Source of the DNA: an uncultured Chloroflexia bacterium
Lineage (GTDB): Bacteria > Chloroflexota > Anaerolineae > CG2-30-64-16
Assembly (NCBI GenBank): GCA_963774265.1
Contig: CAVZDU010000001.1
Span: 1,280,001 to 1,344,000 of the forward strand
Reading direction: 5' to 3'
DNA: 64,000 bases
Shown here: piece after piece, positions 15,929 through 34,444 of the stretch
Numbering within the stretch: position 1 is the stretch's first letter
Layout of the letters: every line of letters begins with the position of its first letter
Notes under the pieces: model-generated
The model's input: only the letters and a program-made list of their open reading frames with translations
What the model was told of the DNA's origin: nothing
Databases searched by the model: none
Translations under genes and position numbers: made by a program

Positions 15929-15981
15929 AGGTCGATACTCTCTTTTGTTAGTGCTCTCAGGTGCCCGCTCTCAGGTACCTC

Positions 15982-16013
15982 AGGTGCCCGGCACTTGCCA
16001 AGTGCCGGGCACC
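15982..16013. repeat. family B palindrome between nuoJ and nuoK
   Basis: aggtgcccggcacttgccaagtgccgggcacct. Confidence 0.85.
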
Positions 16014-16027
16014 TCTTATTGCGCCTC

Positions 16028-16543: not shown

Positions 16544-16551
16544 GCCCACCT

Positions 16552-17022
16552 CTACTCGGCGCGAACGACCACGTTCGGGGTGGTCGGTTTGAGCAGCTCT
16601 TCTTTGGTCCACAGGAAGCCGTCGCGCGTGTAGACCGCGGTCTCGAATTCGTGGCCCAGAACGACAGCCTCCACGGGGCAGGCGGTCTCGCAGTCGCCGC
16701 AGTAGATGCAGCGCATCAGGTTGACTTCCCACACACTGGCGTAACGCTCGTCGGGGCTGACCGGGTGCGCCGGGTCATTTTCCGCGGCCTCGACGTGGAT
16801 GGCCCCGGTGGGGCACGCGGCCTCACACAGCATGCAGCCGATGCAGCGCTCCAGCCCGTTCTCGTAGCGGCGCAGCTCGTGCCGCGCGCGGAAGCGTGGG
16901 TAAACCGCGGCCGGCTCCTCGGGATATTGGGATGTGATCTGGCCCCGGAACAGGTTGGTCAGCGTCACGCGGAAACCCTTCAGGATCTCAACCGCGCCCT
17001 TGATGGAATCAGTTACGGTCAT
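16552..17022 (-). CDS. nuoI: NADH-quinone oxidoreductase subunit I
   Basis: [29 protein letters not shown]. Confidence 0.96.
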
Positions 17023-17032
17023 TCAGATACCT

Positions 17033-18056
17033 CTACACCAGCGTCACAATCACCGCCGTGATGGCCAGGTAGACCAGCGCGACCGGGAACAGGAACGTCC
17101 AGCAGAACCTGAGGAGCTGGTCGTAGCGCGGGCGGGGCACGCTGGCGCTCACCCAGATGAACAGGAACACCATGACCATGATCTTGGCCACGAAGTAGCC
17201 CAGGCCCAGGATCGGGAATTGCTCGACGAACGGGCCGCGCCAGCCACCGAAAAAGACGGACACGGCCACCGCGCTCGCGCCCAGGATGTGCAGGTATTCG
17301 GTCATGTAGAAGAGCGCGAACTTGATGCTGCCGTACTCGGTCGCGTAGCCCGAGACAAGCTCGTTCTCGGTCTCCGGGAAGTCGAACGGCTTGCGGGTGG
17401 TCTCGGCCAGCATGGTGATGAAGTAGAAGGGGAAGGCCAGCCATATCCATAGCCACAGCCACCAGGGCCGGTTCATCGCGACGATCCGGTTCAGGCTCAG
17501 CGTGCCGAAGCCGTCCGCGGTGCCCAGGGTCGTGGTCAGGATCAACGCGATGAGCAGGATGCCCATGGGCAGCTCGTATGAAAGCATCTGGGCGCTGGTG
17601 CGCAGCGCGCCGAGCAGGGAGTATTTGTTGTTGCTGGCGTAGCCGCCCAGGATGATGCCGTAGATGCCGATGGCGGCCGCGGCCAGGACCCACAGGAAGC
17701 CGATGTTGACGTCGGCCACCTGGAGGGGAATCTGCCGGCCGAACAGATTGAGCGTGGGGCCGACCGGAACCACCGCAAAAATGAGCAGCGCGGGCGCGAT
17801 GGCCAGCGCGGGCGCAACGACGTAGAGCAATTTGTCAGCGCGCGGGGATGATTTCCTCTTTGAAGATCATCTTGAGTGCGTCCGCGATCGGGTGGCCCAG
17901 GCCGAATTTCCACGCGCGGTTCGGGCCGATGCGCAGTTGGAAGCGCCCAATCATCTTGCGCTCGAACAGGGTGAGGTAGGCAAAGCCGGTCAGCAGCACT
18001 ACCACGAGCACGAGCGATGTGATTGCCGGGATGAGAATGAGGCCGATCCAGTCCAT
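17033..18056 (-). CDS. nuoH: NADH-quinone oxidoreductase subunit H (operon 1); frameshift near 17838-17844
   Basis: ERK..RIGPNR, ADALKMIFKE in one frame; SNNKYSLLGALR, AETTRKPFD in the next; restoring GC in the gcgcgc run gives PARADKLLY. Confidence 0.9.
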
Positions 18057-18060
18057 GCCG

Positions 18061-20792
18061 TTACTCCAGCGAAGCGTGATCGAGCGCGATGGTGACGGAG
18101 ACCGGTTCTCCGCGGCCGGCGCCGAGAGTCTCGGCCGGGAGGCCGGTCAGGCCGTAGGGCATCCAGGCAGCGCCGGCCGGCATTGCTGGATCCGCGCGCA
18201 GTTCGACGGTGACGCTGGCCAGCGCGGAGGTGACGGTGGCCAGGGTGACGATTGAAGATTGAAGATTGACGATTGAAGATAGGTCGGCCGGGTTGAGCGC
18301 GATGAATGGCGCCGGGATCTTCGCCCGGACCTGCTCGGCCGCGTGCTGCATCAGCACCCCGCCGTCCCACAGGATGGGGCCGGCGATGAGATTGAAGGAT
18401 GAAGGTTGAAGGTTTGAAGGTTGAAGGTCATTCTCACCAATCTTCAATCTGGAATCTTCAATCTTCAATCCGTACCCTTCCCCCGCCCACTGCCGCCCCT
18501 GGTCGGTGAGCGCGTCCCAGCGCAGAGCTGCGTAGACGGGGACGGCTTTGGTGATTTCTTCGAGCACGGACTGGGCGCTGGCGTAAGTCCAGGGTTTGGC
18601 CGCGAAACCGGTCTTGGCGGCCTGCGCGTGCTTCTTTCGCTTCCAGTCGGGGACCGCAGCGGCCCCCTGCGCTCCTGCGAGCGCGGGCGTTGGCGCCTCC
18701 ACGGCGTCGCGGCCCTGAGTCGCCATCCAACGCTCGGCCAATCGGGTCAGGATCGCCCAGCCGGGCAGCGCATCCCCCACCGGCTCAATGCCGGCCGGGC
18801 CGCGCTGGACGCGACGCTCGAGGTTGGTGTAGGTCCCATCGGACTCGGCCCAGGATGTCGCTGGCAGGACCACATGCGCGAGCCGGGCCGTCTTGGTCAG
18901 GAACAAGTCCTGAACCACCAGGAAGCCCAGCTTAGCCAGCGCCTCAGCCGCCCGCGCGGATGCGCCGGGGTCCGCCTCAATAACGTACAGCCCTTTCACG
19001 CCGCCTTCGAGCATCGCCGTGTAACTCAGTCCGGGCTCCGCGGGCGGCTGCACCCCCCACAGCTTGCCCAGCCGTTCGCGCACCGCGGCATCGCCCACCG
19101 GGAGCTGGCCGGGCAGGCTGTCGCTGACCACGCCCATGTCGCGCAGACCCTGGCCGTTGGGCTCATGGCCGATGTACGCGAGCTCACCGCGGCCGAGGAG
19201 CGCGGCGATGTTGTTCAGCGCGCTGACCGTCAGCCGCCCGCGCTCCCCGCGCGCCGCGTCAGGGCCGTAGATGAACAGCGGCGATTTGGCGGCGACGAGA
19301 AGATCGGCGGCGCGCCGAATGAAAGATTCAACGTAGGGGGCGACCTGCGTGTCGCCCCTGCGCCCCCCGGCGCCCGCCATCTGGCTGACCTGTTGCGGCC
19401 TGCCGCCCCGCGCATGTGGATCCGCTTTCGGCGGCGCGACTTTGGCCGCCTGCAGCAGCGACGCGATCTCGTTCAGCGCTGCCGCTTCACCCCCTGGCTG
19501 CACCGCGATGGTCGCGCCCTTGCCGTCATCGGTGTACCGCGCGAGCTCGATGCGCCGCGGATTGAGGATGATCAGCTTCGCGCTCTTGCGCCGGACCGCC
19601 CGCTTGATGTGCAGATCGAGCACCGGCGTCGCCTCGCTCGGATCAAACCCCACCAGCACTATCACATCGCTCTCGCCGATGTCGGCGATCGCCGAGAGCC
19701 CGGTCGGTGCTGCCCGCACACCCGCCCCTTCCGAGAAGTCGACGTTGTTCGTGCCGACCAGGCCGCGGAAGAACTTCTGGAACAGATATGCGGCCTCGTT
19801 CGAGATCCGGCCGCCCGCGATGCCCCCGATGGGAGCACCCCCGGTGGGGGCACCCCCATGGGGGCAATAGCCCTGAAGCCCTCCACCACAGCCGCCAGCG
19901 CCTCATCCCAACTGGCCGGCCGCAGTGCACCGTTCTCCCGGATCATCGGCGTCTTGAGCCGCTCCGGGTGGTCGACGTGCTGGTGCAGGAAGCGCCCCTT
20001 ATCGCAGATCCACTCGTCGTTGACCGCCATGTTCTCGCGGGCTACGATGCGGCGCAACGTATGCACCCGCTCGTCCAGGCGCAGGTTGCAGCCCACGGGG
20101 CAGTGGGTGCAGATGCTCGGTGTCTTGCGCAGCTCCCAGGGGCGGTACTTGAAGCGGGCGACCCGGTTGGTCAGCGCGCCGACCGGGCAGATGTCGATGA
20201 TGCTGCCCGAGGTCCTGGCGTCCACCGGCTTGCCGGGAAACACATCGATGAGCGTCTCGCCCCCGCGCTCGAATAGCCCGATCTGCGGCTTATCTTCCCA
20301 CTCTTCGAGGTAGCGGATGCAACGCCAGCACAAGATGCAGCGCTCCTGGTCCAGCATGATCAGATCGCTGATGGGGTAGTGCTTCTTCTTGCGCCGCTTG
20401 GCCTCGATGAACTTGCTCGCACCCGGCCCGTATTCCATCGTGTTGTCTTGCAGCGGGCACTCGCCGCCCTTATCACAGATCGGGCAGTCGAGCGGGTGGT
20501 TGATCAGGATGAAGCCGAGCACCGCCTCGCGCGCCTCCCGCACCGCCTCACTGTTCGTCACGACGACCATGCCCTCGCTCACGCGCACCGTGCAGGCTGT
20601 ATCCAGCCGGCTCCCGCGCGGCCCGGGGAACTCCACCAGGCACATCCGACACGCGCCCAGCGGGTCCAGCTTCGGGTGCGAGCAGAAAATCGGAATCTCA
20701 ACCCCCGCCGCCTTCGCCGCGTCGATCACCAGCGCCCCCGCAGGGACCTGGACCTTGATGTCGTCGATGGTCACATTGACCAGATCTGCCAT
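18061..20792 (-). CDS. nuoG: NADH-quinone oxidoreductase subunit G; frameshift near 19830-19866
   Basis: CRMCLVE, HPLDCPICDKGGECPLQD, CILCWRCIR, CTHCPVGC (N7); continues IGGIAGGRISNEAAY after a -1 shift; DGTYTNLERRVQ. Confidence 0.9.
18250..18280. repeat. heptamer array, in frame in NuoG
   Basis: gattgaagattgaagattgacgattgaagat = SSIVNLQSSI. Confidence 0.85.
18390..18470. repeat. inverted pair of heptamer arrays, in frame in NuoG
   Basis: Encodes GLKIEDSRLKIGENDLQPSNLQPSSFNL. Confidence 0.85.
19333..19361. repeat. family A REP, in frame in NuoG
   Basis: gtagggggcgacctgcgtgtcgcccctgc = RRGDTQVAPY on the minus strand. Confidence 0.88.
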
Positions 20793-20807
20793 ACGTTTCC
20801 CCTTGGC

Positions 20808-20886
20808 GATTACAGATTGAAAATTGAAAATTGAAGATTGAAGATGACGAGCCCGATCTTCAATCTGTAATCTTCAATCTTCCATC
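20808..20886. repeat. inverted heptamer arrays between nuoEF and nuoG
   Basis: (GATTGAA-like)x5, spacer, (TCTTCAA-like)x4. Confidence 0.88.
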
Positions 20887-20888
20887 CG

Positions 20889-22898
20889 CTACCGTTTCAT
20901 CGTCGGCGCGTTATACTGCTCCTCGAGCGGCAGCGCCGGCTCCGTCACCCCGGACGGCGCACCCGCGTCGGGCCGGTACGTGGGCCGGATCGGGATCACA
21001 AACTGCCTGGACGCCGCGGCGATCGCCGCCTCGAACTCGGGGCGGAACTTCGCCAGGTTGCTCTGCAGGCCCCAGACCGCCGCGTACGAGAACGGGCAGA
21101 AGCTCTTCCCCGCGATCATGTCCGCGATGTAGAGCATCAGAGCGATGTCGTCCGTGCGGCCCTCGCCCCGCTCCACGCGCTCCAGGATGTCCTCCAGCCA
21201 GCCCGTCCCCTCCCGGCACGGCGTGCACTTGCCGCAGCTTTCCTCGCGGTAGAACGCGATCGTCCGCCGCGCCACCTCGACCAGGCTCTGGTTCTGGCCG
21301 ATCACGATCACCGCGGCCGCGCCGAGGCTCGATCCGGCTTTCGTGATGCTGTCGAAGTCCATCGGCGTGTCCAGCTGGCTCTCGTCCAGCATCTGCATTG
21401 ACAGCCCGCCGGGGATGATCGCCTTCAGGCCCCCCGCATCCTCGGTCAGCCCGCCCGCCCAGTCATAAACCAGCTCGCGTAGCGTCACCCCGTGCGGCAG
21501 CTCGTACAGCCCGGGCTTCTGGACCTGGCCGCTGATGCCGTAAATGCGGAAACCGGTGCTGCTGGGCGGGCCCCACTGCCGGTACCAGTCCGCCCCGTTC
21601 CTCAGCACGTGCGGCACATTGGCGATCGTCTCCACGTTGTTCACGATCGTCGGCTTGCCGTACAGCCCCGAGACCGCCGGGAAGGGCGGCTTGAGCCGCG
21701 GATGGCCCCGGTAGCCTTCCAGCGAGGACAGTTGCGCCGTCTCCTCGCCGCACTCGTACACGCCCGCGCCGCGGTGGACCACCACCTGTAGGGGGCGACC
21801 ACGATGCGCCGCATCGCCGTGTCGCCCCAGGCGACCGGACGACGGGGCGACACGCAGGTCGCCCCCTACGTCCCGCCCTAGGTCGCCCCCTACGTCCCGC
21901 CCTAGGGCGCCCAGGATCCCCGCCGCCTCAGCCTCCGCGATCGCGCCCTCCAGCCGCTGCGCCGCAAAATAATACTCCCCGCGCACATAGATGAACGCCC
22001 GCTCGGCCTCGATCGCATAGCATGTCAGGATGATCCCCTCCAGCAGCTGGTGCGGGTCATACTCCATAATCATGCGGTCCTTGAACGTGCCCGGCTCCGA
22101 TTCATCCGCGTTGACCACCAGGTAGCGCGGAGTGACCCCCGCGGGAAGAAAGCCCCACTTGACCCCCGCCGAAAACCCCACGCCCCCGCGCCCCCGCACA
22201 TTCGCCGCCTTCATCTCCTCGATCACCTGGCCGGGCGTCTTACCGCCGAGAACCGCCTGCGCGGTCTCATACCCGCCCCCCGCGCGATACACGGCCAGCG
22301 TGTGCGAATCCGGTTTATCCACATTGGCGAGCAGGAAATTCGTGTCCGGCCGGCCGCCGTGGCGGAACGGACCGGTCGGCCAGCGCTCCGTCGTATCGAA
22401 GCCGTGGCCCGACACAATCAGCGCCAGCGCCTCGTCGACCTTCTCCGGCGTGTCCAGCTCCTCGAAATAGCGGATCCGGCCGGTCTGCCGCTCCGTGGCC
22501 ATGAACATCGGCGCGGTTGCACACGCCCCCAGGCACTCCACATGGCCCAGCGTGAACCGGCCATCCCGCGTTGTCTGGCCGAAGCGGACCCCCACCCGCT
22601 CCTCCAGCGCCCGGGTCAGCTGCCCCGCGCCCCGCAGCATGCACGGCACATTGTCGCACACCTCAATCGTGACTTCGCCCGGCTCGCGGTGCACGTGATA
22701 CATATGGTAGAAGCTGGCGAACTCGCCCACCTCCGCCGCGTCCAGCCCGAACAGCGCGCCCACCTCCGCGAGCACCTCCGCCGGCAGCCACCCGCGCTCC
22801 ACCTGCGCCACATACAGCGCCGGCCCCAGCGCGGACCGGGGGACGGGATAACGGGCCTGCAGGGCCCGAATTTCAGCAATAGCTCTATCGGAAAGCAC
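20889..22898 (-). CDS. nuoEF: fused NADH-quinone oxidoreductase subunits E and F
   Basis: NuoE: SFYHMY, CDNVPC, ECLGAC; NuoF: GRGGVGF, NADESEPGTFKDR, YECGEETA, ESCGKCTPCREG, SFCP; single ORF. Confidence 0.92.
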   Translation of the reverse strand: MLSDRAIAEIRALQARYPVPRSALGPALYVAQVERGWLPAEVLAEVGALFGLDAAEVGEFASFYHMYHVHREPGEVTIEVCDNVPCMLRGAGQLTRALEERVGVRFGQTTRDGRFTLGHVECLGACATAPMFMATERQTGRIRYFEELDTPEKVDEALALIVSGHGFDTTERWPTGPFRHGGRPDTNFLLANVDKPDSHTLAVYRAGGGYETAQAVLGGKTPGQVIEEMKAANVRGRGGVGFSAGVKWGFLPAGVTPRYLVVNADESEPGTFKDRMIMEYDPHQLLEGIILTCYAIEAERAFIYVRGEYYFAAQRLEGAIAEAEAAGILGALGRDVGGDLGRDVGGDLRVAPSSGRLGRHGDAAHRGRPLQVVVHRGAGVYECGEETAQLSSLEGYRGHPRLKPPFPAVSGLYGKPTIVNNVETIANVPHVLRNGADWYRQWGPPSSTGFRIYGISGQVQKPGLYELPHGVTLRELVYDWAGGLTEDAGGLKAIIPGGLSMQMLDESQLDTPMDFDSITKAGSSLGAAAVIVIGQNQSLVEVARRTIAFYREESCGKCTPCREGTGWLEDILERVERGEGRTDDIALMLYIADMIAGKSFCPFSYAAVWGLQSNLAKFRPEFEAAIAAASRQFVIPIRPTYRPDAGAPSGVTEPALPLEEQYNAPTMKR
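21788..21905 (-). repeat. long composite family A REP with 24-bp duplication, in frame in the NuoF part
   Basis: Encodes LGRDVGGDLGRDVGGDLRVAPSSGRLGRHGDAAHRGRPLQ. Confidence 0.9.
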
Positions 22899-22912
22899 TC
22901 AGACCTCCACCT

Positions 22913-22976
22913 ATTACAGATTGAAGATTACAGATTGAAGATCGGGTTCGTAATCTTCAATCTTCAATCTTCAATC
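22913..22976. repeat. inverted heptamer arrays between nuoCD and nuoEF
   Basis: attacagattgaagattacagattgaagat-cgggttcg-taatcttcaatcttcaatcttcaatc. Confidence 0.88.
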
Positions 22977-22977
22977 G

Positions 22978-24837
22978 TTAACGGTCAACATCCCCCAACA
23001 CAATATCGATCGTCCCGATATTAATAATCAGGTCCGCAATCAGCCGCCCCTGCGACATCACATTCAGCGCCTGCAGATTATGGAACGAAGGCGTCCGGTA
23101 GCGCAGGCGGTATGGCATCCCCGAGCCATCGCTGACCAGGTAGAACCCCACCTCCCCGCGCGGGCTCTCCACGCACTCGTAGATCTCCCCCTTGGGCGGC
23201 GTCATCCCCTCCGTGTTCAGCTTGAAGTGGTGAATCACCGCCTCCATGCTCGTATCCAGCTCCTGGCGCGGCGGCAGCGCCATCTTGCGGTCCGCCGTCC
23301 ACACCGGGCCCTCAGGCATGTCGGCGAGCCGCGCCAGCCCTTGCTCCACGATCCGCAGGCTCTGGCGCATCTCCTCGATCCGCACCAGGTAGCGCGCATA
23401 CGCATCCCCGTCCGTCGCCGTCGCCATTTTGAAATCAAAATCCTCGTAACCGCTGTACGGCCGCAGCTTCCGGTAATCCAGCGGCACGCCCGACGCGCGC
23501 GCCAGCGGCCCGGATAGCCCCAGCGCCAGGCACTGGTCCGCGCTCAGCTTGCCCACGCCGACCGTGCGCGCCTTCCAGACCGGGTTCTCCGTCATAAAGC
23601 GTTCGTACTCATCGAAATGGCTGGGGAAAGTGCGCAGGATATCGCCCACACGCTCGCTGAACGCGGGCGGGACATCGCGCCAGACGCCCCCGGGCCGGAT
23701 GTAGGACGTCGTCAGCCGTGCGCCGCTGACCAGCTCGAAGATATCCAGCAGCTGCTCGCGCTCGCGGAACGCGTACATCAGCATCGCGTGGCTCATCCCG
23801 GACGCGTCCATCACACTCGTCCCCAGCCACAGCAAATGCGACGCGACGCGCTGCAGCTCGGCCATCACCACCCGCAGCACCTGGCCGCGCGGGGGAATCT
23901 CCACCCCCATCAGCTTCTCCACGGCCAGCGCATACCCCAGGTTATTGCACATCGACGCGACATAGTCCGACCGGTCCGTGTAGGGCAGGAAATCCTTATA
24001 CCGGATCGTCTCCCCCTGCTTCTCGAAGCCCGAGTGCAGGTAGCCCAGGTCCGGGTACGCCGCCACCACCGTCTCCCCGTCCAGCTCCACCACCACCCGC
24101 AGCACCCCGTGCGTCGCTGGGTGGTGCGGCCCCAAGTTCAGGATCATGTGCTTGTTCCCGTCCGCCTGCTTCGGCGGGACCTGCGGCGCCGCCCGCGCCT
24201 CGATGATCTGCTGCCCGAAGCTCTCGAACTCCTCGTCCTCCCACGTCATCGAAAAAGGCACCGTTTCCCCCCCGCGCGGCACGTCCTTGCGCAGCGGATG
24301 ATTGGGCCAGTCGTGCGGCATCATAATGCGGCGCAGATCGGGATGGCCCTCGAAGCGGATGCCCATCAGGTCGTAGACCTCGCGCTCCGGCCAATCCGCA
24401 CCGGGCCACAATGACGTCAGGCTGGGGACGGAGACAGCGGATTGCAGATTGGAGATTGAAGATTGGGTGGCGGCCGTGACCTTCTCCCTCGCCAGCGCGG
24501 GGACCTTGAGGCTGATGCGCTGCGCGGTCGTGGGGGAAAAGAGCTGGTAGACCGTCGTGAAGCGGGCTGGGCCCGCGTGGCCGGGATACTCGCTCCAATC
24601 CACCGAAGTCACGTTGGACAGGTGGCGGTAAGCCAGCTGGGCATCATCCCGCAGCAGGCGCGCGACGCCGACCAGGTCCTCCGGCCGGATGGTCAGGGTC
24701 GTTTCACCTCGATGCGTGGCGGCGCCCAGGATAGCGGCGGGGAAGCGGCCGCGGATCTTATCGACGGCCGCCAGCGCCGCGGCTCCATCCGGGATTGCGC
24801 CATCCGGGATGGCAGCGACATCGGGGGTGGGAGTCAT
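22978..24837 (-). CDS. nuoCD: fused NADH-quinone oxidoreductase subunits C and D
   Basis: [24 protein letters not shown]; [38 protein letters not shown]. Confidence 0.95.
24440..24465. repeat. heptamer array, in frame in the NuoC part
   Basis: gattgcagattggagattgaagattg = QSSISNLQS. Confidence 0.8.
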
Positions 24838-25361
24838 GCGGAACCTCCGGCCTTGTTGACCGAATCTTCAATCTCGTCGTACCGTCGATCCCGGAACTTC
24901 TCCGTCGCGATCTTCTGCTGCAGCAGCGTGAGCGCGTAGAAAAGCGCCTCGGGCCGCGGCGGGCAGCCCGGCACATATACGTCTACCGGCAGGATCTTAT
25001 CGACGCCCTGGATAATCGCGTAATTGTTGAAGGGCCCGCCCGCGCTCGCGCAGATCCCCATCGCGATCACCCACTTCGGCTCGAGCATCTGGTCGTAGAT
25101 GCGCTTGATCACCGGCGCCATCTTCTGGCTGACCCGGCCGGACACGATCAGCAGGTCCGCCTGGCGCGGCGACGCGCGGAAGACCTCCGAGCCGAAGCGC
25201 GCGATATCGAAGCGGCTGCCGCCCGCCGCAATCTGCTCGATCGCGCAGCAGGCCAGGCCGAACGTGAGCGGGTAGATCGAGTATTTGCGCCCCCAGTTGA
25301 CCGCTTTCTCCAGCGTCGTCGTGACCAAGCCCTCAGCGGGCAGTTTTTCTTCGAGACCCAT
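24834..25361 (-). CDS. nuoB: NADH-quinone oxidoreductase subunit B
   Basis: [35 protein letters not shown]. Confidence 0.96.
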
Positions 25362-25377
25362 GCGTATCTCCATTACC

Positions 25378-25448
25378 GATTGAAAACTACAGATTGAAGA
25401 TTGCAGATTGCGGCGGAATCTTCAATCCTTATTCTTCAATCTTCAATC
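25378..25448. repeat. inverted heptamer arrays between nuoA and nuoB
   Basis: gattgaaaactacagattgaagattgcagattg..aatcttcaatccttattcttcaatcttcaatc. Confidence 0.85.
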
Positions 25449-25451
25449 GCC

Positions 25452-25808
25452 TCATTGCCATTTGAAGGCGTCGTTTTTCCATGCGTAGATGAAGCCGACG
25501 AGCAGGATGACGACGAAGATGGCTATTTCGATGAGGCCGAAGAGGCCCAGTTTGCGTGCGGCGACGGCCCAGGGATACATCAGGATGACCTCGACATCGA
25601 AGAGGATGAAGAGGACTGCGATGACGTAGAACTGGACAGGGAAGCGGCGCCTGGCGTCACCGAAGGGAAGGATGCCGGACTCGTAGGGTTCGCGCTTGGC
25701 GGGGTTGTGGCGTTTGGGGCCGAGGAGGGCGGATACGCCCAGCGCGAACGCCGCGAACCCGAAAGCCACGACGACCATCACAAGAATAGGAAGATAGCCT
25801 TCTGGCAT
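25452..25808 (-). CDS. nuoA: NADH-quinone oxidoreductase subunit A (operon 1)
   Basis: KREPYESG, FILFDVEVILMYPWA; GGAG RBS. Confidence 0.95.
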   Translation of the reverse strand: MPEGYLPILVMVVVAFGFAAFALGVSALLGPKRHNPAKREPYESGILPFGDARRRFPVQFYVIAVLFILFDVEVILMYPWAVAARKLGLFGLIEIAIFVVILLVGFIYAWKNDAFKWQ

Positions 25809-25897
25809 GTCTTGCTCCGAAAAAGCCTCATGAATGTGAGGTGGATGAAGATCCAGGCTGGCAGCGCATGGCGTAGCCCACCCTCGCGCGCTGGCGA

Positions 25898-25927
25898 AGT
25901 CTATCACGAATGATTTGGGCTTGTCAA
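25898..25927 (-). promoter_or_regulatory. candidate sigma70 promoter for nuo operon 1
   Basis: TTGACA-18 nt-TAGACT on the minus strand; spacer contains the inverted repeat ATCA-cgaa-TGAT. Confidence 0.5.
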
Positions 25928-25991
25928 AACATAATCTTTCTGGCCGATCCTTTCTGTAACGATAGTCACAAATATTTTCACGCTGCACGCT

Positions 25992-26020
25992 TTGCGTTCT
26001 AATTACGATCATGCTACAAT
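25992..26020 (+). promoter_or_regulatory. candidate sigma70 promoter for nuo operon 2
   Basis: TTGCGT-17 nt-TACAAT with extended TG. Confidence 0.6.
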
Positions 26021-26133
26021 GCGCACGTTCTGTGCCGGGTGTCTCAGTTCCTCTCTCCGGCGTAGCCACATAGGAACGGCCTTCACCGCAAGCGCTCGGC
26101 TTTTGGCGCGCGCTGCCCAAAGGAGGGTTGACC

Positions 26134-26490
26134 GTGCTCTCGCAGTACGCATTTATCGGTGTCTTTGCCATTATCACTTTCGGGCTGCCTGTCATTGGCT
26201 TGGTCATGGCGTGGCTGCTCCGTCCCAAGAAACCCAACCCAGCCAAGAACGCTACCTATGAATGCGGCATGGAGACCATCGGTGACACCTGGGTTCAGTT
26301 CAAGGCACAGTACTACTTGTATGCCCTGGTGTTCGTGGTTTTCGATGTTGAAGCCATCTTCGTTTTTCCCTGGGCTGTGGCTTACGACAAGCTGGGTCTC
26401 TATGCCCTGGTCGAGATGGTGCTCTTCGTGCTAATCTTGCTGGGCGGCCTGCTTTACGCCTGGCAGAAGAAAGCGTTGGAGTGGCATTGA
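26134..26490 (+). CDS. nuoA: NADH-quinone oxidoreductase subunit A (operon 2)
   Basis: KNATYECG, VVFDVEAIFVFPWA; AGGAGG RBS before GTG. Confidence 0.95.
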   Translation: MLSQYAFIGVFAIITFGLPVIGLVMAWLLRPKKPNPAKNATYECGMETIGDTWVQFKAQYYLYALVFVVFDVEAIFVFPWAVAYDKLGLYALVEMVLFVLILLGGLLYAWQKKALEWH

Positions 26491-26491
26491 T

Positions 26492-27670
26492 ATGGACTAC
26501 GTGCTTGATTTCTTCGTCAACCTGGGCCGCTCCTGGACAAATTGGCTGAGTGGTTTCCTGCCTGAGTGGGGCGTCACCACAATCAATTACATTGTGATCG
26601 GCATCATTCTCGTTTTGATGCCGGTGATCGCCACCCTAACGCTGACCTGGATGGAGCGTAAAGTCATCGGCCGCATTCAAAATCGCCTTGGGCCGAACCG
26701 GGTGGGCCCCTGGGGTCTCTTCCAAGCCATCGCGGACGCGGTGAAGATGCTGATTAAGGAAGATATTATTCCCGATGGCGCGGACCGGCCGGTGTTCAAC
26801 CTCGCTCCGATCCTGATCGCCGGCGCGGCGGGCCTGGTGTGGGCGGTCGTACCTTTCGGTAGGGGGATGATCGGCACCGACCTCAACGTAGGTGTTCTGT
26901 ACCTGGTTGCGGTCGGCTCGATCACCACCGTCTCGGTCATCATGGCCGGGTGGGGTTCGAACAATAAGTTCGCGCTGATCGGTGCATTTCGCGGCATGGC
27001 ACAGCTCCTCAGCTACGAAGTCCCGATGATCCTGTCCATCGCCACGGTCGTGCTACTCGCCGGTTCAATGAGCACGATGCGCATCGTTGAGGCGCAACAG
27101 ATCCCCTTCATTCTCGTTCTGCCGGTGGCTTTCATTGGTTACTTCCTGGCCGCGGCCGCTGAAGTGGGCCGGGCGCCGTTCGACCTGCTCGAAGCCGACT
27201 CCGAGATCGTCGCCGGTTATTTTATTGAGTACAGTGGTTTGAAGTTCGGTTGGTTCTATATTGCCGAGTATGGCAACCTGTTTGCAGTTTCGGCGATCAC
27301 AGCCACGTTGTTCCTCGGCGGCTGGCGCGGGCCGTTCTCCCATGAGGCGCCGGTGCTGGGGCCGCTCTATTTCATCATCAAGACGCTGCTCGTGGTGTTT
27401 CTCATGATGTGGATCCGAGGCACGTGGCCTCGTTTTCGCATCGATCAGATGCTGGGCTTTGCCTGGAAGGTGCTGGTTCCTGCGTCGTTGGCGAACCTTT
27501 TGTGGGTGGCTATCGTGCTCAAAATCGCTGTTCCGACGATCGTGCAGTGGGCGCTGATGCTTGGCGGCAATCTGCTGATATTGGTGGTCGCCGCAACCAT
27601 GCTCGGGCGTGCAGCAAAGCGCTATGCCGAGCGACGTAATCATGCACCGCTTTCGTCGGGAGTCGTTTGA
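26492..27670 (+). CDS. nuoH: NADH-quinone oxidoreductase subunit H (operon 2)
   Basis: ERKVIGRIQNRLGPNRVG, SNNKF, RAPFDLLEADSEIVAGY, PRFRIDQ. Confidence 0.95.
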   Translation: MDYVLDFFVNLGRSWTNWLSGFLPEWGVTTINYIVIGIILVLMPVIATLTLTWMERKVIGRIQNRLGPNRVGPWGLFQAIADAVKMLIKEDIIPDGADRPVFNLAPILIAGAAGLVWAVVPFGRGMIGTDLNVGVLYLVAVGSITTVSVIMAGWGSNNKFALIGAFRGMAQLLSYEVPMILSIATVVLLAGSMSTMRIVEAQQIPFILVLPVAFIGYFLAAAAEVGRAPFDLLEADSEIVAGYFIEYSGLKFGWFYIAEYGNLFAVSAITATLFLGGWRGPFSHEAPVLGPLYFIIKTLLVVFLMMWIRGTWPRFRIDQMLGFAWKVLVPASLANLLWVAIVLKIAVPTIVQWALMLGGNLLILVVAATMLGRAAKRYAERRNHAPLSSGVV

Positions 27671-27703
27671 TCCGCCATTGCTTTGTTTGATGGGGATGCA
27701 ATC

Positions 27704-28196
27704 ATGCAACAAGTGATGTTCATCGTTCTCAGCGCGGTCACCTTGATCTCTGGGGCGCTGGTCGTGACCACGCGGAGCCTGTTCAGGTCGGCGCTGTGGT
27801 TAGTGCTGAGCTTTTTTGGCATCGCAGGGTTGTTTGTCCTGCTAAATGCTGAGTTCCTCGCCGTTGCCCAGATCCCTCATCTATGTCGGCGCCATCTCAA
27901 CCCTGATCATTTTTGCGATCATGCTGAGCCGCGGGGTCATGGATCCTGAGACTCGGCGTTTCAACGATCAGTGGGGTTTGGTGGCGGGCTTCGGCGCGGT
28001 CCTTTTCGTGTTGCTGGCGGCCATTCTGACCCGAGTGCAATGGCCCATCGCCGCCGGTGAGGTTCCCGCTGATGCAATACAGCGTCTAGGCGCCGACTTT
28101 GTCGGCCCGTACGTTATTCCCTTCGAAGTTGCCTCTGTTTTGCTGGTCGTCGCCATGATCGGCGCCATCATTATCGCACGTGAGCGGGAGAACTAG
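27704..28196 (+). CDS. nuoJ: NADH-quinone oxidoreductase subunit J (operon 2); +1 frameshift near 27874-27876
   Basis: AEFLAVAQI/LIYVGAI split by an extra C in atccctc; PFEVASVLL. Confidence 0.9.
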
Positions 28197-28197
28197 C

Positions 28198-28506
28198 ATG
28201 GTTCCTCTCACCTGGTATTTGATCGTTTCGGCTGCGCTGTTTTGCATCGGCGCATTCGGTGCGCTGGCCAGGCGCAATGCGGTCGGCGTCCTCATGGGCG
28301 TCGAGCTGATGCTTAACGCAGTCAACATCAATCTCATTGCTTTCTGGCGTTACATCAGCGTGGGGCAGATGACCGGGCAGTTGTTCGCCATCTTCGTCAT
28401 CACCGTGGCTGCTGCTGAAGCAGCAGTGGGCCTGGCATTGATCATCGCGATCTACCGTCAGCGCAGTACGGTGAATGTCGAAGAAATCGACACGATGAAG
28501 GGATAG
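28198..28506 (+). CDS. nuoK: NADH-quinone oxidoreductase subunit K (operon 2)
   Basis: RRN..GVELMLNAVN, AAAEAAVGLA. Confidence 0.95.
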   Translation: MVPLTWYLIVSAALFCIGAFGALARRNAVGVLMGVELMLNAVNINLIAFWRYISVGQMTGQLFAIFVITVAAAEAAVGLALIIAIYRQRSTVNVEEIDTMKG

Positions 28507-28510
28507 CGCG

Positions 28511-30749
28511 ATGAGCGAACCTGCTGTCACACTGCCGGCTGTCTTCAACCTGACGCTGATCATCCCGTTCCTGCCGTTCGCTGCGTTTGTGCTCATCGTC
28601 TTGTGGGCTAACCGCAGCAAGAAGTTGAGCGCGGGATTGGCCATTGGCGGTATCGCGCTTGCCTGGATCGTCAGTTGGGCCATTACCTTTACAACATTCG
28701 GTATCGAGCACTTCGGCGAGAACCCCTTCCGCGTGTTCCGCGACTGGCTGCCCACCGGCCGCACCTGGCAGGCGTTCGGCTTCGCCGTCGATCCGCTTGC
28801 AGGCGCCATGCTCTTCATGGTGCCGTTTGTGTGTTTTCTGATTTTTGTCTACGCGGTTGGCTACATGGGTGTTGGCAAACCGGAGAGCGAGCACGATGAG
28901 CGCGGCAAGCCTGCTGAGCCGGGTCATGTCGATCGCCTCGCTAGCCGCTTCTTCGCATATATCGCCCTATTCGCCACGGGCATGCTGGGCTTCGTGCTGG
29001 CAGACAACCTGATCCTGGCCCTGATCTTTTGGGAGGTCATGGGCCTCTGCTCCTACCTGCTCATCGGCTTTTGGTCTGCACGGAAGTATCCGAATCCCAA
29101 GCAAATCACACCCAAGGAGGCCGGCCTCAAGGCATTCCTGACTACTCGCATCGGCGACACGGTGATGTTGGCGGGTATGTGGTTGCTTTATGCACGCACC
29201 GGCTCGCTCAGCTTTGCGGATATCTTCAAACCTGAGGTGCTGGAGAGCCTGGCCACCTCCACAGTCAACCTCCCCATTGCCGGCGCCACGCCATGGGCTA
29301 CCTTGATTGCGATCCTGATTTTCTTCGGCGCCATTGGCAAGAGCGCACAGTTCCCCTTGCACGTCTGGTTGCCCGACGCTATGGAAGGCCCCACGCCCGT
29401 CTCAGCGTTGATCCACGCGGCGACGATGGTTTCTGCAGGCGTCTACCTGGTCATCCGCACCTTCCCGTTGATGCAGGCGGTCGACCACGGCGCGGCCTTG
29501 CGCTTCATTTCGTTCATTGGCGCGTTCACTGCCTTGTTTGCGGCGACGATCGCCCTGTCCCAGAACGATATCAAGAAGGTGCTGGCATATTCGACCATTT
29601 CCCAACTCGGCTACATGTTTGCTGCGCTGGGCATGGGCGCGTACGTCGCGGCAACCTTCCATCTGATGACTCACGCCTTCTTTAAGGCGCTTCTGTTCCT
29701 CGGCTCGGGCAGCGTGATCCACGGCATGGAGCACGGCCACCACGAGGCTGAACACGCAAGTGCCGGGCACCAAGAAGCCCACGCGGGTGCGGAGCACAAC
29801 TTCGACCCTCAGGATATGCGCAACATGGGCGGTCTCTTCCGCCGTATGCCGCGCACTGCGTGGACTTTCATTATTGGCGGACTGGCGCTGAGCGGTTTCC
29901 CCCTGGTCACAGCCGGATTTTGGAGCAAGGATGAGATCCTGGCCGACGCCTGGGCGCATGACCACACCATCATCTTCTTCGTGCTTGCCCTGGCCGCGCT
30001 CTTGACCGCCTTTTACACCGCACGGCAGATCATGATGACTTTCTTCGGCAAGCCGCGCACCGCAGGCAGCCGATCACGCTTCGGAGCACGACAGCATCTT
30101 CGCCTGGATGACAATCCCGTTGATGGTGCTGGCGGTCTTCGCGGTGGCCGGCGGCTGGATCGGCATTCCCACTTCCTTCCCGGGATTGGGCGCACTCTCC
30201 ACGAACCCGTTCCATCACTACATCGGTGGATTGGCTGAGGCGCTACACATCGAGGCGGGAGAGATCGCCTTCAATCCTGTGCCGCTGCTGACTTCGTTGG
30301 TGGTGGCATTGGGCGGTCTGTTCTTGGGCTGGGCGGTCTACCGGGGCTACGCGGCACGGGGCCAGAGCGAGGCGCTCGATCCGTTGGCGCGGCCGTTGGG
30401 AGGACTGTACAGGGTGCTTCAGAATAAGTACTACTTTGACGAGTTGTACTACAAGGTCTTCGTCAAGGGCAGCCAGCGGCTGGCCAACTGGCTCTTCAAG
30501 TTCGATGATTTGTGGGTTATCGATCCGATCGTCGATGGTGTGGGCAGGCTCGGCCGGGGACTGTCCGAAATCGGCCACTGGGCCGATGTCAACATTGTTG
30601 ATCGCATCGTGAATGGCGCCGGTGAAGTTGCCGACGCGCTGGGGACGGCGCTCCGCAGCCTGCAGACCGGCAAAGCCCAGAATTATCTGTTTACAGTTCT
30701 GTTTATGTTGTCTGTTGCGTTGGGCGTGTTCTTGTTGCTGCCCAAGTAA
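28511..30749 (+). CDS. nuoL: NADH-quinone oxidoreductase subunit L (operon 2), extended lateral helix; +1 frameshift near 30062-30066
   Basis: KSAQFPLHVWLPDAMEGPTPVSALIHAATMV, GFWSKD; C-terminal part MTIPL..NKYYFDE..LQTG in the second frame. Confidence 0.92.
29756..29771 (+). repeat. half family B element in a NuoL2 loop
   Basis: gcaagtgccgggcacc, identical to 8448-8463; encodes ASAGH in both places. Confidence 0.55.
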
Positions 30750-30796
30750 TCTATAGGCATTTGTCCTGTGCAACCGGTCCATCGGAGGGGTCTTTG

Positions 30797-32377
30797 ATGA
30801 ATAACCTGCTGCTGACTCTTATCACCTTCATACCACTTGTCGGCGCGATCCTGACACTGATGCCCTGGGGCGAGTGGCTGCGTCTCGACAAGGCGCGTGA
30901 GGAAGGACTCATCAAGCAGGGCGCGATCGCGATCAGCACGCTCCCGCTTGGCCTCTCGATCCTGCTCTGGTTCGCCTACAACAGTGCTGTCGGGAGCATG
31001 CAGTTCGAGGTCAAGGTCCCCTGGATAACGGCGGTGAACGTCAGCTACCACGTCGGCGTGGATGGCTTGAGCGTGCCGTTTGTCTTCCTGACCACGTTCC
31101 TGACGACCTTGGGGCTGTGGTATTCGGCGCGGACGATCAGGACTCGCGTGCGTGAGTTTTTCTTCCTGTTCATGCTGCTCGAGATGGGCATGCTAGGGGT
31201 CTTCGTCTCTCTGGACCTGGTGCTGTTCTATGTCTTCTGGGAGATCGGTCTGGTGCCGATGTACTTCCTGATCGGCATCTGGGGCCAACCAAAAGATCGA
31301 CCCCAGTACTCAGCCATCAAGTTCTTCCTCTATACGATGGCCGGATCTGTCTTCATGCTGCTAGCCATCCTCGCCATTTATTTCACCACCGGCAGCTTTG
31401 ACATCCTCGAGGCTCAAGCCGCCCGCCCCTTCGCGGGCAACGTGTTGTTGTCCAGCCTGGCCTTCTTCGCCTTCTTCATCGCCTTTGCAATCAAGGTGCC
31501 AAGCTGGCCCTTCCACACCTGGCTGCCCGACGCCCACACGGCTGCGCCGACGGCCGGATCAGTGATCCTGGCAGGCGTTCTGCTGAAGCTCGGCGCCTAT
31601 GGCATTCTGCGCATTGCGCTGCCGATCTTCCCGGAGGCTGCCCATCGTTACGCCCTTTTGATCGTCGCGCTGGGGGTCATCTCGATCATCTACGGCGCAC
31701 TTGTCTCCATGGCTCAATGGGATCTTAAGCGCCTGATCGCCTACTCTTCAGTGAGTCACATGGGCTACATCATGCTGGGTGTCGGTGCCGCAGCGTATGC
31801 CGTTGGCAATCCGGATTTGATTGATGCGGCCGCCATGGCGCTGAACGGCGCGGCACTGCAGATGTTCACCCACGGACTAAGCACCGGCGCCTTGTTCTTT
31901 CTCGTTGGCGTGATCTACGAGCGAGCCCACGTGCGCGACCTGAAGATGTTCGGCGGGCTGAGCGGCAAGTTGCCTTATTACTACGGCCTCTTTGCAGTAG
32001 CTGCGTTCACTTCCTTGGGCTTGCCGGGCCTGGCAGGCTTCTGGAGCGAGTTCTTCGTCTTTCGCGGCGCTTTCGCTATCGTGAGCGTCTGGGCGGCCGT
32101 TGGTGTGATCGGCATCGTCCTGACCGCAGCCTACATCCTCTGGAAGATCGTGCAATATACCTTCCTGGGTGAGTATGACCCGCATAAGATTGCTCACTGG
32201 ACCGATGTGGAGACGCGTGCGGAGCTGCACGAGCCCAAGGATCTCGCCATGTTTGAGAAGGTGACGTTGTGGCCGCTGACGATCTTCATGGTCCTGTTTG
32301 GCCTGTTCCCGGCGCTGATCCTGGTGTTCTTCAATACGACCTTTGTCAATCTGATGACCGGGTTGGCCGGCAAGTGA
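30797..32377 (+). CDS. nuoM: NADH-quinone oxidoreductase subunit M (operon 2)
   Basis: FYVFWEIGLVPMYFLIGIWG, HTWLPDAH, LLKLGAYG, GLPGLAGFWSEF. Confidence 0.95.
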   Translation: MNNLLLTLITFIPLVGAILTLMPWGEWLRLDKAREEGLIKQGAIAISTLPLGLSILLWFAYNSAVGSMQFEVKVPWITAVNVSYHVGVDGLSVPFVFLTTFLTTLGLWYSARTIRTRVREFFFLFMLLEMGMLGVFVSLDLVLFYVFWEIGLVPMYFLIGIWGQPKDRPQYSAIKFFLYTMAGSVFMLLAILAIYFTTGSFDILEAQAARPFAGNVLLSSLAFFAFFIAFAIKVPSWPFHTWLPDAHTAAPTAGSVILAGVLLKLGAYGILRIALPIFPEAAHRYALLIVALGVISIIYGALVSMAQWDLKRLIAYSSVSHMGYIMLGVGAAAYAVGNPDLIDAAAMALNGAALQMFTHGLSTGALFFLVGVIYERAHVRDLKMFGGLSGKLPYYYGLFAVAAFTSLGLPGLAGFWSEFFVFRGAFAIVSVWAAVGVIGIVLTAAYILWKIVQYTFLGEYDPHKIAHWTDVETRAELHEPKDLAMFEKVTLWPLTIFMVLFGLFPALILVFFNTTFVNLMTGLAGK

Positions 32378-32402
32378 TGATCCAGGGACGGGAGGCGGTC
32401 CT

Positions 32403-33896
32403 TTGAAACTGACTGATCTTGTTTATCTTTTGCCCGAGGTGATTCTCCTGCTCGGCGCGGCGCTGGTGTTTTTGCTCGACATCCTGTGGTTGCGGCGAGC
32501 CATGTCAGCGGACCGGCGTTTTTCGTGGTTGGCCGGTGTCGCGCTGATCGTCTTGCTCGTTGCTGCGCTCGGCCTGATCCCCTCCCAGGGCCAGACAGTC
32601 ACGATCGCGACGATGCTGTCGGTAGACCCGTTTGCAGTCTTCTTCAAGGCGCTAGCCCTGATGGGCGTGGCTCTGGTGATCCTCATCGCCATGCCCTACC
32701 TGAAGGGACGTACGGCGTTTGGCGGTGAGTTTTATGCGCTGCTGCTGATTGTCGCGCTGGCAATCTGCTTCGCGGTGTCTGCGAACAATCTGATCATGAT
32801 CTACCTCAGCATGGAGTTTCTGAGTATCACCAGCTACGTGTTGGCCGGTTATTTAAGGCAGGACCGGAAATCGGGTGAGGCTGCCCTGAAGTACTTCCTG
32901 TATGGCGCAACCGCGTCGGCGGTAATGCTCTACGGCATGTCCCTACTCTATGGGGCCACCGGCACGACGGATCTTGCACAACTCTCGACAGCGCTCGCCG
33001 CCCGCGGTCAGGGTGAACTGGTCTGGCTGGTGACCCCTGCCGTCCTGATGCTGATGGTCGGCTTCGGCTTTAAGGCCAGTCTCGTGCCATTCCACCAATG
33101 GGTGCCCGACACGTATGAGGGTGCGCCCACCCCGGTCACGGCGTTTTTGTCCACCGCGTCCAAGGCCACCGGTTTCGCGATTTTGATGCGGGTTTTGCTG
33201 ACCGCCCTGGGCAGCCGGCCCATCGCTGGGACCTGGATCACCCTGCTGGTTGCCCTCTCCGTCCTGACCATGACGCTGGGCAACCTGACGGCCCTGCGCC
33301 AAACGAACATCAAGCGCTTGTTGGCCTACTCCTCAATCGCGCAGGCGGGCTACATCCTGATCGGCGTCGCGGCCGTGTCGGCAGACCCCAGACTAACATT
33401 CAATGGCATCAACGGTGTACTGATCTATCTGCTCGCCTACCTGTTCACCAATGTGGGTGCGTTCGCAGTGGTGACTGCAATTGAGACGGCCACAGGTAAG
33501 GTGGAGTTGAAGGATTACACCGGGTTGATCCGACGCTCACCCTGGTTGGCCGCACTGCTGTTGATCTTCCTGTTGTCGCTGGCCGGCATTCCCCCCACAG
33601 GCGGATTCCTGGCGAAGTTCTTTGTCTTTGGCGCAGCCGTGTATCGGCAAATGTGGGTGTTGCTGGCTATCGCGGCGATCAATACGGTGGTGGCCGCGTT
33701 TTACTACTTGAATATCGTCCGGTACATGTTCCTGACCCCGCCTGAAGCGCAGGAAGAGCGTGTGTCTGTGTCGCCCGCGTTCGGCGCGGTGCTGGGCATC
33801 ACCGCATTGGTGACGTTACTGCTCGGCATCATCCCGGGTCCACTCATCGCATGGGCTTCTGATTCGGCGCGTATCCTGCTGGCGGCCTTGCGCTAG
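32403..33896 (+). CDS. nuoN: NADH-quinone oxidoreductase subunit N (operon 2)
   Basis: EAALKYF, FKASLVPFHQWVPDTYEGAPTP, KRLLAYSSIAQAGY. Confidence 0.95.
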   Translation: MKLTDLVYLLPEVILLLGAALVFLLDILWLRRAMSADRRFSWLAGVALIVLLVAALGLIPSQGQTVTIATMLSVDPFAVFFKALALMGVALVILIAMPYLKGRTAFGGEFYALLLIVALAICFAVSANNLIMIYLSMEFLSITSYVLAGYLRQDRKSGEAALKYFLYGATASAVMLYGMSLLYGATGTTDLAQLSTALAARGQGELVWLVTPAVLMLMVGFGFKASLVPFHQWVPDTYEGAPTPVTAFLSTASKATGFAILMRVLLTALGSRPIAGTWITLLVALSVLTMTLGNLTALRQTNIKRLLAYSSIAQAGYILIGVAAVSADPRLTFNGINGVLIYLLAYLFTNVGAFAVVTAIETATGKVELKDYTGLIRRSPWLAALLLIFLLSLAGIPPTGGFLAKFFVFGAAVYRQMWVLLAIAAINTVVAAFYYLNIVRYMFLTPPEAQEERVSVSPAFGAVLGITALVTLLLGIIPGPLIAWASDSARILLAALR

Positions 33897-33913: not shown

Positions 33914-34444
33914 GTGAGTGAAGAGAAGCCACTCCGGCGCCGGCGAGTCCATCGAGAGAGTCGCGGTCGTCAGTTCCTGCGCAACTATCGATTCGATCTG
34001 CTCTGGCTGCTGCTTGTTGCGATTGGACTGTTCCTGCTCCTGGAGCGGAGCAATCTACGTGAATCCTTGACCACGTGGGCCAGGGAGGCGGCGCACAAGC
34101 TGCTCCAACGTGCGACGGCGCTCGACGAACAGATCAGTGCGTTCCTCGCCCAGGTGTCCATCTCCCACCTGGTCGGTCTTGTGCTCGTCGTGATCGCTGT
34201 GGTCGCGTTTCTCTTGCGAGTTCGATGGCGGCTTTTGAACGCGCCCGAACTGACGCAGCTTCGGTGTCCACATTGCGGCGGAGGCCTTCACCGCGTCCAT
34301 CGCACCGCGACCGACCGGCTCATCGGGTTGTTTGTGCCGGTTCGTCGATATTGCTGCCGGGCCGACGCATGTGGTTGGAAGGGACTGCGCGTCGGTCGCG
34401 GCCACGTCATTTCCGAGAGTAAGGGTCTTCGTTCTGCGGTGTAA
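33914..34444 (+). CDS. hypothetical two-TM membrane protein with C-terminal Zn-ribbon
   Basis: Two hydrophobic segments; CPHCGG..RRYCC..CGW. Confidence 0.65.
   Translation: MSEEKPLRRRRVHRESRGRQFLRNYRFDLLWLLLVAIGLFLLLERSNLRESLTTWAREAAHKLLQRATALDEQISAFLAQVSISHLVGLVLVVIAVVAFLLRVRWRLLNAPELTQLRCPHCGGGLHRVHRTATDRLIGLFVPVRRYCCRADACGWKGLRVGRGHVISESKGLRSAV

Follow-up and report, generated by a model that had tools for sequence, protein, structure and literature searches.

Operon 2, the subject of this report, is a cluster of seven genes for membrane subunits of respiratory complex I in an uncultured Chloroflexia bacterium. It lies within a stretch of 64,000 nucleotides (the window; G000:C1:1280001-1344000, contig CAVZDU010000001.1) of an assembly of 5.5 Mb which is rated 84% complete; positions given without a prefix are those of the window. 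Between 26134 and 33896 the plus strand encodes nuoA, nuoH, nuoJ, nuoK, nuoL, nuoM and nuoN only, as judged by Pfam, which detected no homologue of NuoB, NuoC, NuoD or NuoI on this strand over the same interval. Head-to-head with these genes, on the minus strand, stands a complete complex I operon, operon 1. A preliminary description of the window had reported the same arrangement, and the Pfam assignments bear it out.

The first gene of operon 2, nuoA2 (26134..26490; Pfam Oxidored_q4, 131.7 bits, E-value 1.2e-38), has a GTG start at 26134, 7 nt downstream of a GGAGG motif. The frame is open from a TTG at 26128, and the alignment of the orthologue from genome G005 begins at 26134. The nuoA2 stop at 26490 is separated by 1 nt from the ATG of nuoH2 at 26492, and the nuoH2 stop at 27670 by 33 nt from the ATG of nuoJ2 at 27704, spacings which agree with those first reported. 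The nuoH2 gene (26492..27670; NADHdh, 388 bits) is intact and encodes 392 aa, while nuoJ2 (27704..28196) is read in two frames, positions 2-42 and 43-146 of the Oxidored_q3 model being split over two open reading frames (ORFs). It is followed by nuoK2 (28198..28506; Oxidored_q2, 101 bits), the start of which was taken from an orthologue alignment, and by nuoL2 (28511..30749), which encodes ~745 aa, also in two frames, with matches to Proton_antipo_M and Proton_antipo_N and a weak match to Proton_antipo_C in the second ORF. The sole nuoM of the operon, nuoM2 (30797..32377, open from a TTG at 30761; Proton_antipo_M, and NCBIfam NDH_I_M with 533 bits), is the one gene between nuoL2 and nuoN2 (32403..33896; Proton_antipo_M, 263.5 bits, with orthologue alignment). 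NuoA, NuoH, NuoK, NuoL, NuoM, NuoN and both pieces of NuoJ exceed the Pfam or NCBIfam cut-off, the C-terminal piece of NuoL matching weakly, and the NCBIfam Nuo models score above the Ndh and Fpo models.

Operon 1 (10422..25809, minus strand) was delineated from Pfam matches and tblastn pieces. Its gene order is nuoA-B-CD-EF-G-H-I-J-K-L-M-N, so that 14 functions are carried by 12 genes, including a CD fusion of 619 aa and an EF fusion of 669 aa. The divergent nuoA1 and nuoA2 are separated by a spacer of 324 bp (25810..26133). One sigma-70-like site was found in it, on the minus strand at 25927-25898; by the same rule the plus strand of the spacer contains no such site. NuoH2 and NuoH1 share 39% identity.

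The remote nuoB-nuoCD-nuoI cluster

The preliminary description had advised a search of the genome for further copies of nuoB, nuoC, nuoD and nuoI, and a second set is indeed present. A nuoB-nuoCD-nuoI cluster occupies G000:C1:675848-679394, on the same contig as operon 2 and 630 kb upstream of it. The NuoB family, PF01058, has four matches in the whole assembly: one in operon 1, one at C1:675998-676327 and two others. The latter two were rejected as NuoB, being [NiFe]-hydrogenase small subunits which lie beside large subunits and maturation genes. The NuoD family, PF00346, matches in operon 1 and at C1:677514-678264 only.

At the remote locus (L008) the genes run in the order nuoB (221 aa), nuoC with nuoD, and nuoI. 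One ORF (L008:8870-10117) runs in frame from the last part of the C domain into the first part of the D domain, from which it follows that nuoC2 and nuoD2 are fused; intact fused CD proteins of 574 and 592 aa are present in relatives. After nuoI2 an overlapping ORF of 225 aa appears in a second frame. Because its repeat motif recurs in a relative's NuoI of 366 aa, this ORF is read as the frameshifted C-terminal tail of NuoI2. NuoI with its tail is encoded at G000:C1:678277-679394 (L008 10278-11394) in the window's genome, and at L102 8633-9733 and L105 8222-9127 in relatives. In split clusters the tail is long and Ala/Pro-rich, with two to three charged helix motifs (approximately P-E-E-I-E-R-L-K-A-E-A-A-A-R-R-A-A-K). 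It matches no family and might serve as a docking element for the electron donor.

The surroundings of the cluster are conserved. In all five relatives fetched at length the order is nuoB, nuoCD (574-592 aa), nuoI (301-366 aa), a gene of the metallo-beta-lactamase (MBL) fold, a gene for a Cys protein of 118-125 aa, an amine-oxidase-family flavoprotein gene and Mrp/NUBPL.

Three further observations were made at these loci. The Cys protein of 118-125 aa, which shows a CxxC...CxxC pattern, is encoded at G000:C1:679909-680277 (L008 11910-12281), L102 10923-11279 and L105 10310-10687. It adjoins nuoB-nuoCD-nuoI in Anaerolineales and Caldilineaceae with 48-86% identity, matches no Pfam or NCBIfam family, and has look-alikes in the Atlas only among unnamed Chloroflexota clusters. 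The MBL-fold hydrolase gene lies between nuoI and a DUF1858 gene in relatives (L102 9766-10449; L105 9444-10142), and the corresponding interval of the window's genome (L008 10853-11436) is too short to hold it. Finally, in one relative, at G011:C65:51356-51940 (L121), a nuoB of the same type as nuoB2 lies in a 765-aa open frame running into nuoCD, which may be a B-C-D triple fusion.

Copy number and distribution in relatives

A tblastn search of the assembly with every subunit returned exactly two copies of NuoA, B, C/D, H, I, J, K, L, M and N. The second B-CD-I set therefore has operon 2 as its only membrane arm and, conversely, the only quinone module (Q-module) which operon 2 need not share is the remote set.

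The comparison of synteny proposed in the preliminary description was made across related genomes. Among 598 candidate stretches 583 were confirmed as relatives of NuoH2, of which the 80 best loci were taken. In 56 of these 80, from Anaerolineales, Caldilineaceae, Thermoflexales, Roseilinea and others, nuoA adjoins nuoH and no nuoB, nuoC, nuoD or nuoI lies on that strand. A contiguous A-B-C-D-H-I-J-K-L-M-N cluster is found in 22, from Dehalococcoidia, Syntrophomonas, Clostridium, Zixibacteria and one 'Deltaproteobacteria' metagenome-assembled genome (MAG), while the remaining two are cut at the locus edge. Every one of the 15 genomes with a split locus carries elsewhere a nuoB of the B2 type, followed by a nuoCD of the CD2 type and with no nuoA upstream. 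An operon-1-type nuoB was not found in four of these 15 genomes (G006, G012, G014 and G015). Subject to the incompleteness of MAGs, the split enzyme can thus stand alone.

The head-to-head layout with operon 1 recurs in 22 of the 56 split loci, in both Anaerolineales and Caldilineaceae. All 22 have one nuoM (1M), as in the window. None of the 19 true loci with two nuoM genes (2M) has the layout, a set which excludes L017, where the apparent 'MM' is a frameshift artefact. In 27 of the 56 split loci at least 3 kb of upstream sequence is available and contains no operon 1.

A side observation concerns three relatives (G006, G007 and G009; L118-L120), which possess a third NuoB/NuoD-like pair, 41-45% identical, beside an antiporter-like gene. 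This pair, which did not turn up in the genome of the window, probably represents a module of the group-4 hydrogenase type or of another complex I-like kind.

Phylogeny of the two halves

Trees were built for NuoB, NuoD, NuoH and NuoI. In all four the operon 1 proteins form a separate clade, with SH-aLRT support of 94 (NuoB), 100 (NuoH), 100 (NuoD) and 99 (NuoI). Split-type NuoB sequences make up one clade (99) which is sister to the contiguous-type NuoB of Dehalococcoidia (84); this tree leaves out one row, a 633-aa read-through ORF of L063, and merges identical sequences. Split NuoD (100) and split NuoI (99) are nested among contiguous-type sequences, and 56 of 58 split NuoH rows fall in one clade (96) beside the contiguous type. 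On these trees the remote B-CD-I cluster and operon 2 are of matching clade, apart from operon 1. What the genome holds is the simple split operon which the preliminary description had set against its own favoured reading, with nuoBCD(I) of matching clade at another place, the NuoB, NuoD, NuoI and NuoH trees being in agreement.

Conserved motifs and selection

The cofactor and quinone-site motifs are retained. In NuoB2 the tandem, third and fourth cysteines (CC...C...C) correspond, in alignments to solved chains, to the N2 ligands, and NuoD2 keeps the His of HPxxHG and the Tyr of DRLDY in a corresponding alignment. We take the four cysteines to be the ligands of cluster N2, and the His and Tyr to be quinone-site residues. 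NuoI2 contains two 4Fe-4S motifs, seen as two Pfam Fer4 stretches. NuoH2 aligns over its full length with solved ND1/NuoH chains and preserves the loop motifs between transmembrane helices (TM) 1 and 2 and TM5 and 6, in keeping with the earlier remark that its docking loops are intact. Significant matches to solved structures include the NdhK, NdhH, NdhA and NdhF chains.

Ratios of nonsynonymous to synonymous substitution (dN/dS) for nuoA, nuoH, nuoK, nuoM and nuoN against two relatives are 0.05-0.12, with dS near saturation; those of nuoH2 against its orthologues are 0.08-0.12. On these ratios the five genes are under purifying selection.

A probable single enzyme encoded at two places

Operon 2 and the remote nuoB-nuoCD-nuoI cluster very probably encode a single enzyme, a second complex I of the 11-subunit type which lacks NuoEFG and whose genes reside at two places on the chromosome. 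The gene content, the parity of copy number, the co-occurrence in relatives, the matching phylogeny, the intact cofactor and quinone-site motifs and the purifying selection all point the same way, and from them we infer that the split enzyme would assemble physically and be active. In the mechanism envisaged, NuoB2, NuoCD2 and NuoI2 would dock on NuoH2 and NuoA2, and the docked Q-module would pass electrons to quinone, so driving the NuoL, NuoM and NuoN pumps, or would operate in reverse. The electron donor would most likely be a ferredoxin-type input, as has been proposed in the literature for 2M and other 11-subunit complexes.

Some points weigh against this interpretation. With a genome that is 84% complete, the finding of exactly two copies is provisional, as is the absence of operon 1 from other MAGs. 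The trees are quick ones with SH-aLRT support only; they came with several long-branch warnings, those of NuoH, NuoD and NuoI were built without a mixture model, and the pairing of split NuoB with Dehalococcoidia NuoB has support of only 84. No donor module was identified for the split enzyme. Lastly, nuoJ2, nuoL2, nuoCD2 (twice) and nuoI2 are frameshifted here; were these frameshifts real, the enzyme would be inactive in this strain.

As to how the split arose, the contiguous form has B-C-D between A and H, and I between H and J. The B-C-D block and nuoI, which are thus apart in that form, sit together and in order at one remote site, which favours an origin in which an entire operon was duplicated and the two copies then lost complementary genes. 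Two independent excisions are disfavoured, since they would not be expected to give a single ordered B-CD-I site.

A different source of electrons would apply if operon 2, with its own Q-module, borrowed NuoEF and NuoG from operon 1, making a second NADH:quinone oxidoreductase with another membrane arm. There is one nuoEF-nuoG set only in a nuo context, and the head-to-head loci are without exception 1M loci, as in the window; both facts are compatible with such borrowing. A candidate for a second NADH module at G000:C1:1120686-1125321 (L107 4686-9321, minus strand) was rejected. It comprises a NuoEF-like fusion (582 aa), a 2Fe-2S/4Fe-4S protein and a molybdopterin-binding catalytic subunit with a dinucleotide-binding domain, and looks like an NAD-dependent formate dehydrogenase. 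Borrowing is nevertheless rather unlikely. The four split genomes which lack an operon-1-type nuoB, including the 1M genome G012, probably lack operon 1 altogether, and no nuoE, nuoF or nuoG occurs in the contiguous clusters of Dehalococcoidia, Syntrophomonas and Clostridium. Moreover, excerpts of two papers propose ferredoxin as the donor for 2M complexes (PMC6606698; PMC9040806).

The frameshifts raise the question of whether operon 2 is a pseudogene cluster decaying in this strain. They are absent from the preliminary description. In nuoJ2, at ~27872-27874, one extra C lies within a run of C, and nuoL2 has a one-base frameshift with the frame junction at ~30063-30073. At the remote locus L008 nuoCD2 is broken twice (~8870-8934 and ~10064-10117) and nuoI2 once (~10717-10853). 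Similar breaks occur outside the split enzyme, in nuoH1 (~17830-17975) and nuoG1 (~19662-19719) of operon 1 and in the amine-oxidase gene of L008 (12576-12631). In genome G005 the orthologous nuoJ is intact at 162 aa and NuoL has 763 aa, aligning to nuoL2 in two pieces. Four soil DNA runs yielded mostly short, low-depth contigs of relatives, which were usable at the nuoJ2 site only, coverage of the nuoL2 frameshift site and of most of the operon being too thin; at the nuoJ2 site, the contig of a relative (~92% identical) is one base shorter at 27874, which is weak evidence at a depth of 2.57.

On indirect evidence the breaks in nuoJ2, nuoL2, nuoCD2 and nuoI2 are read as, most likely, assembly indel errors, because all three nuo loci and neighbouring genes are affected whilst orthologues elsewhere are intact, and because relatives from similar assemblies (L014, L017 and L018) are equally fragmented. 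Real decay is very unlikely, given in addition that both sides of each break remain highly similar to the orthologues, that the dN/dS values are low and that the relative's contig is without the extra base. In the regions read, one-base frameshifts occur about once per 3-4 kb, which fits the completeness rating of the genome.

The headline of the preliminary description was that operon 2 is an exchangeable membrane arm, switched from back-to-back promoters, which uses the peripheral arm of operon 1 (B, CD, I and EFG). Had this held, it would imply respiratory complexes that swap membrane arms on a shared peripheral arm. The 324-bp spacer shared by the two operons, and the recurrence of that layout in Anaerolineales and Caldilineaceae, are what speak for it. 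The evidence otherwise removes it: operon 2 has a dedicated B-CD-I cluster, as do the relatives (15/15); the core copies stand at 2:2; 27 of the 56 split loci have 3 kb or more of upstream sequence free of operon 1; no operon-1-type nuoB was found in four genomes; and NuoH2, only 39% identical to NuoH1, belongs to another clade. We regard such exchange as highly improbable. The preliminary description had also offered a second option, that operon 2 docks a module encoded elsewhere, and it is this half of the proposal which stands.

Least credible, to the point where it may be practically dismissed, is an Mrp-like ion-translocating unit without a redox module, as suggested for the marine actinomycete nuoAHJKLMN; the same A-H-J-K-L-M-N order does occur in the extra operon of Salinispora, Streptomyces and Kocuria (excerpts of PMC6676996), but the matching B-CD-I cluster of all 15 genomes and the quinone-cavity loops of NuoH2 tell against it, and the N2 and quinone-site residues of NuoB2 and NuoD2 would be pointless without a membrane partner.

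The NuoL lateral helix and the number of pumps

The split enzymes share a long NuoL. The median length is 743 aa in 1M split loci and 737 aa in 2M split loci, against ~625 aa in contiguous loci. The difference was measured as the distance between two conserved anchors which bracket the NuoL lateral helix. This distance is 71 aa in NuoL2, 71-72 aa in 22 of 23 1M split loci (93 in the other) and 71-73 aa in the six 2M loci with matching anchors. It is 46 aa in nine of ten contiguous loci, the tenth, from Zixibacteria, having 71, and 45 aa in NuoL1 of operon 1. The additional stretch of 25 residues in NuoL2 is unmatched in 6hum_F, the solved NdhF chain of a cyanobacterium. It resembles a duplicated helix repeat and would extend ~38 Å if helical. 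In the AlphaFold model of an intact NuoL orthologue (763 aa, mean pLDDT 85.5) residues 657-735 form one helix, followed by the last TM helix; the pLDDT within this helix is only ~60-78.

In excerpts of PMC9040806, a 26-residue NuoL insert at this position in 2M complexes is interpreted as making the helix long enough to reach across four pumps. The same source reports an insert of this kind (~26 residues) in Complex_I_1 and Complex_I_2 of 'Ca. Manganitrophaceae', the operons of which contain no extra pump subunit. There it is left unexplained, the authors suggesting complexes on the way to gaining or losing an extra pump. Those complexes belong to another phylum and have another operon layout. 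The window's enzyme poses the same structural question, namely what the extended NuoL lateral helix spans when there are three pump genes only: it combines the insert linked to four pumps with one nuoM.

A tree of concatenated NuoA, NuoH, NuoK, NuoL and NuoN (56 loci, 1658 columns) recovers the split clade (100) with a 1M locus at its base, followed by a 2M clade (98) and a 1M clade (96). The clade of the window is sister to the 2M clade. Since the insert is present throughout the split clade, including the basal 1M member, it predates the divergence of the 1M and 2M forms, and the most parsimonious reading of this tree is that the second nuoM was gained once. NuoM2 is orthologous to the L-proximal NuoM of 2M clusters. 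The N-proximal nuoM of these clusters (loci L023-L073) forms a clade of its own (99) beside the Syntrophomonas/Clostridium-type, that is Firmicutes-type, NuoM; it did not arise by a recent tandem duplication of the L-proximal gene.

No third NuoM-, NuoN- or NuoL-like gene beyond those of the two operons was found in the window's assembly by tblastn. Extra antiporter-like genes in four relatives were considered as stray nuoM genes and ruled out, being Mrp-like pairs of one long member (a 795-994-aa frame) and one shorter. The 1M genome G012 shows three antiporter-like genes only and no operon 1, and for this reason the borrowing of NuoM1 from operon 1 is the less likely way of filling a fourth position. 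If the 1M split complexes of Anaerolineales and Caldilineaceae have four pump positions, the fourth would be occupied by one of the operon's own subunits in duplicate, most simply by NuoM2 used twice. We put this forward as a speculation that is more probably wrong than right by a wide measure. With four positions, it would represent a stage of one gene and two positions, before or after the two-gene state of the 2M complexes.

Relation to known complexes

The split layout is already in print for Chloroflexi, and the enzyme of the window is its one-nuoM relative. According to excerpts of PMC7117926, which cites Chadwick, Hemp, Fischer and Orphan (2018, ISME J), the 2M complex I operons of Chloroflexi have nuoBCDI separated and nuoCD fused. 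As far as those excerpts and those of PMC6606698 go, the 2M complexes resemble operon 2 in having nuoBCDI apart from the membrane operon, a fused nuoCD, a long NuoL and no nuoEFG in the cluster. Operon 2 differs from them in possessing one nuoM, the N-proximal gene being absent, and in standing head-to-head with a 14-function operon. Literature searches brought up no paper on a split operon of Chloroflexi that combines one nuoM with a long NuoL; Chadwick et al. 2018 may already describe 1M relatives or the head-to-head layout. The split layout goes unmentioned in excerpts of Spero et al. 2015 (PMC4453560) and of the Anaerolineae genome papers PMC4653793 and PMC5826079. The present data extend the split layout to a large one-nuoM clade, often head-to-head with a canonical operon.

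The contiguous 11-gene type, nuoABCDHIJKLMN, of Dehalococcoidia, Syntrophomonas and Clostridium has the same 11 core subunits, again without NuoE, NuoF and NuoG, and in the NuoB, NuoD, NuoH and NuoI trees it is the nearest relative of both split halves. It is distinguished by its single operon, its separate nuoC and nuoD and its NuoL of ~625 aa, whereas the window's enzyme is split, with a fused CD and a NuoL of ~745 aa. Cyanobacterial and plastid NDH-1 and archaeal Fpo likewise consist of an 11-subunit core without an NADH module, the input being ferredoxin or F420. No genes of the NdhS/V/O type or the FpoF type were seen adjoining operon 2 or the B-CD-I cluster.

The extra partial operon nuoAHJKLMN of marine actinomycetes agrees with operon 2 in its seven genes and their order and is a second copy beside a full operon (excerpts of PMC6676996). 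The lineage of the window has a separate B-CD-I set alongside its nuoAHJKLMN. For annotation in Anaerolineae and Caldilineae a simple rule follows: such an operon should not be labelled partial but matched with the nuoB-nuoCD-nuoI cluster at its remote site.

Genes downstream of operon 2

Immediately 3' of nuoN2 lies an ORF of 176 aa (33914..34444, plus strand), which contains two hydrophobic segments, is Cys-rich at its C-terminus and matched no Pfam or NCBIfam family. By tblastn it has a counterpart at the same position in L011, L014, L016, L017 and L019 (39-58% identity), that is in five of the six close relatives whose sequence reaches that far; L018 is without it. Further on, 2.2 kb downstream of operon 2 and past a Mur-ligase-family gene, the minus strand carries a gene for an IS4-type DDE transposase (36131-37486).

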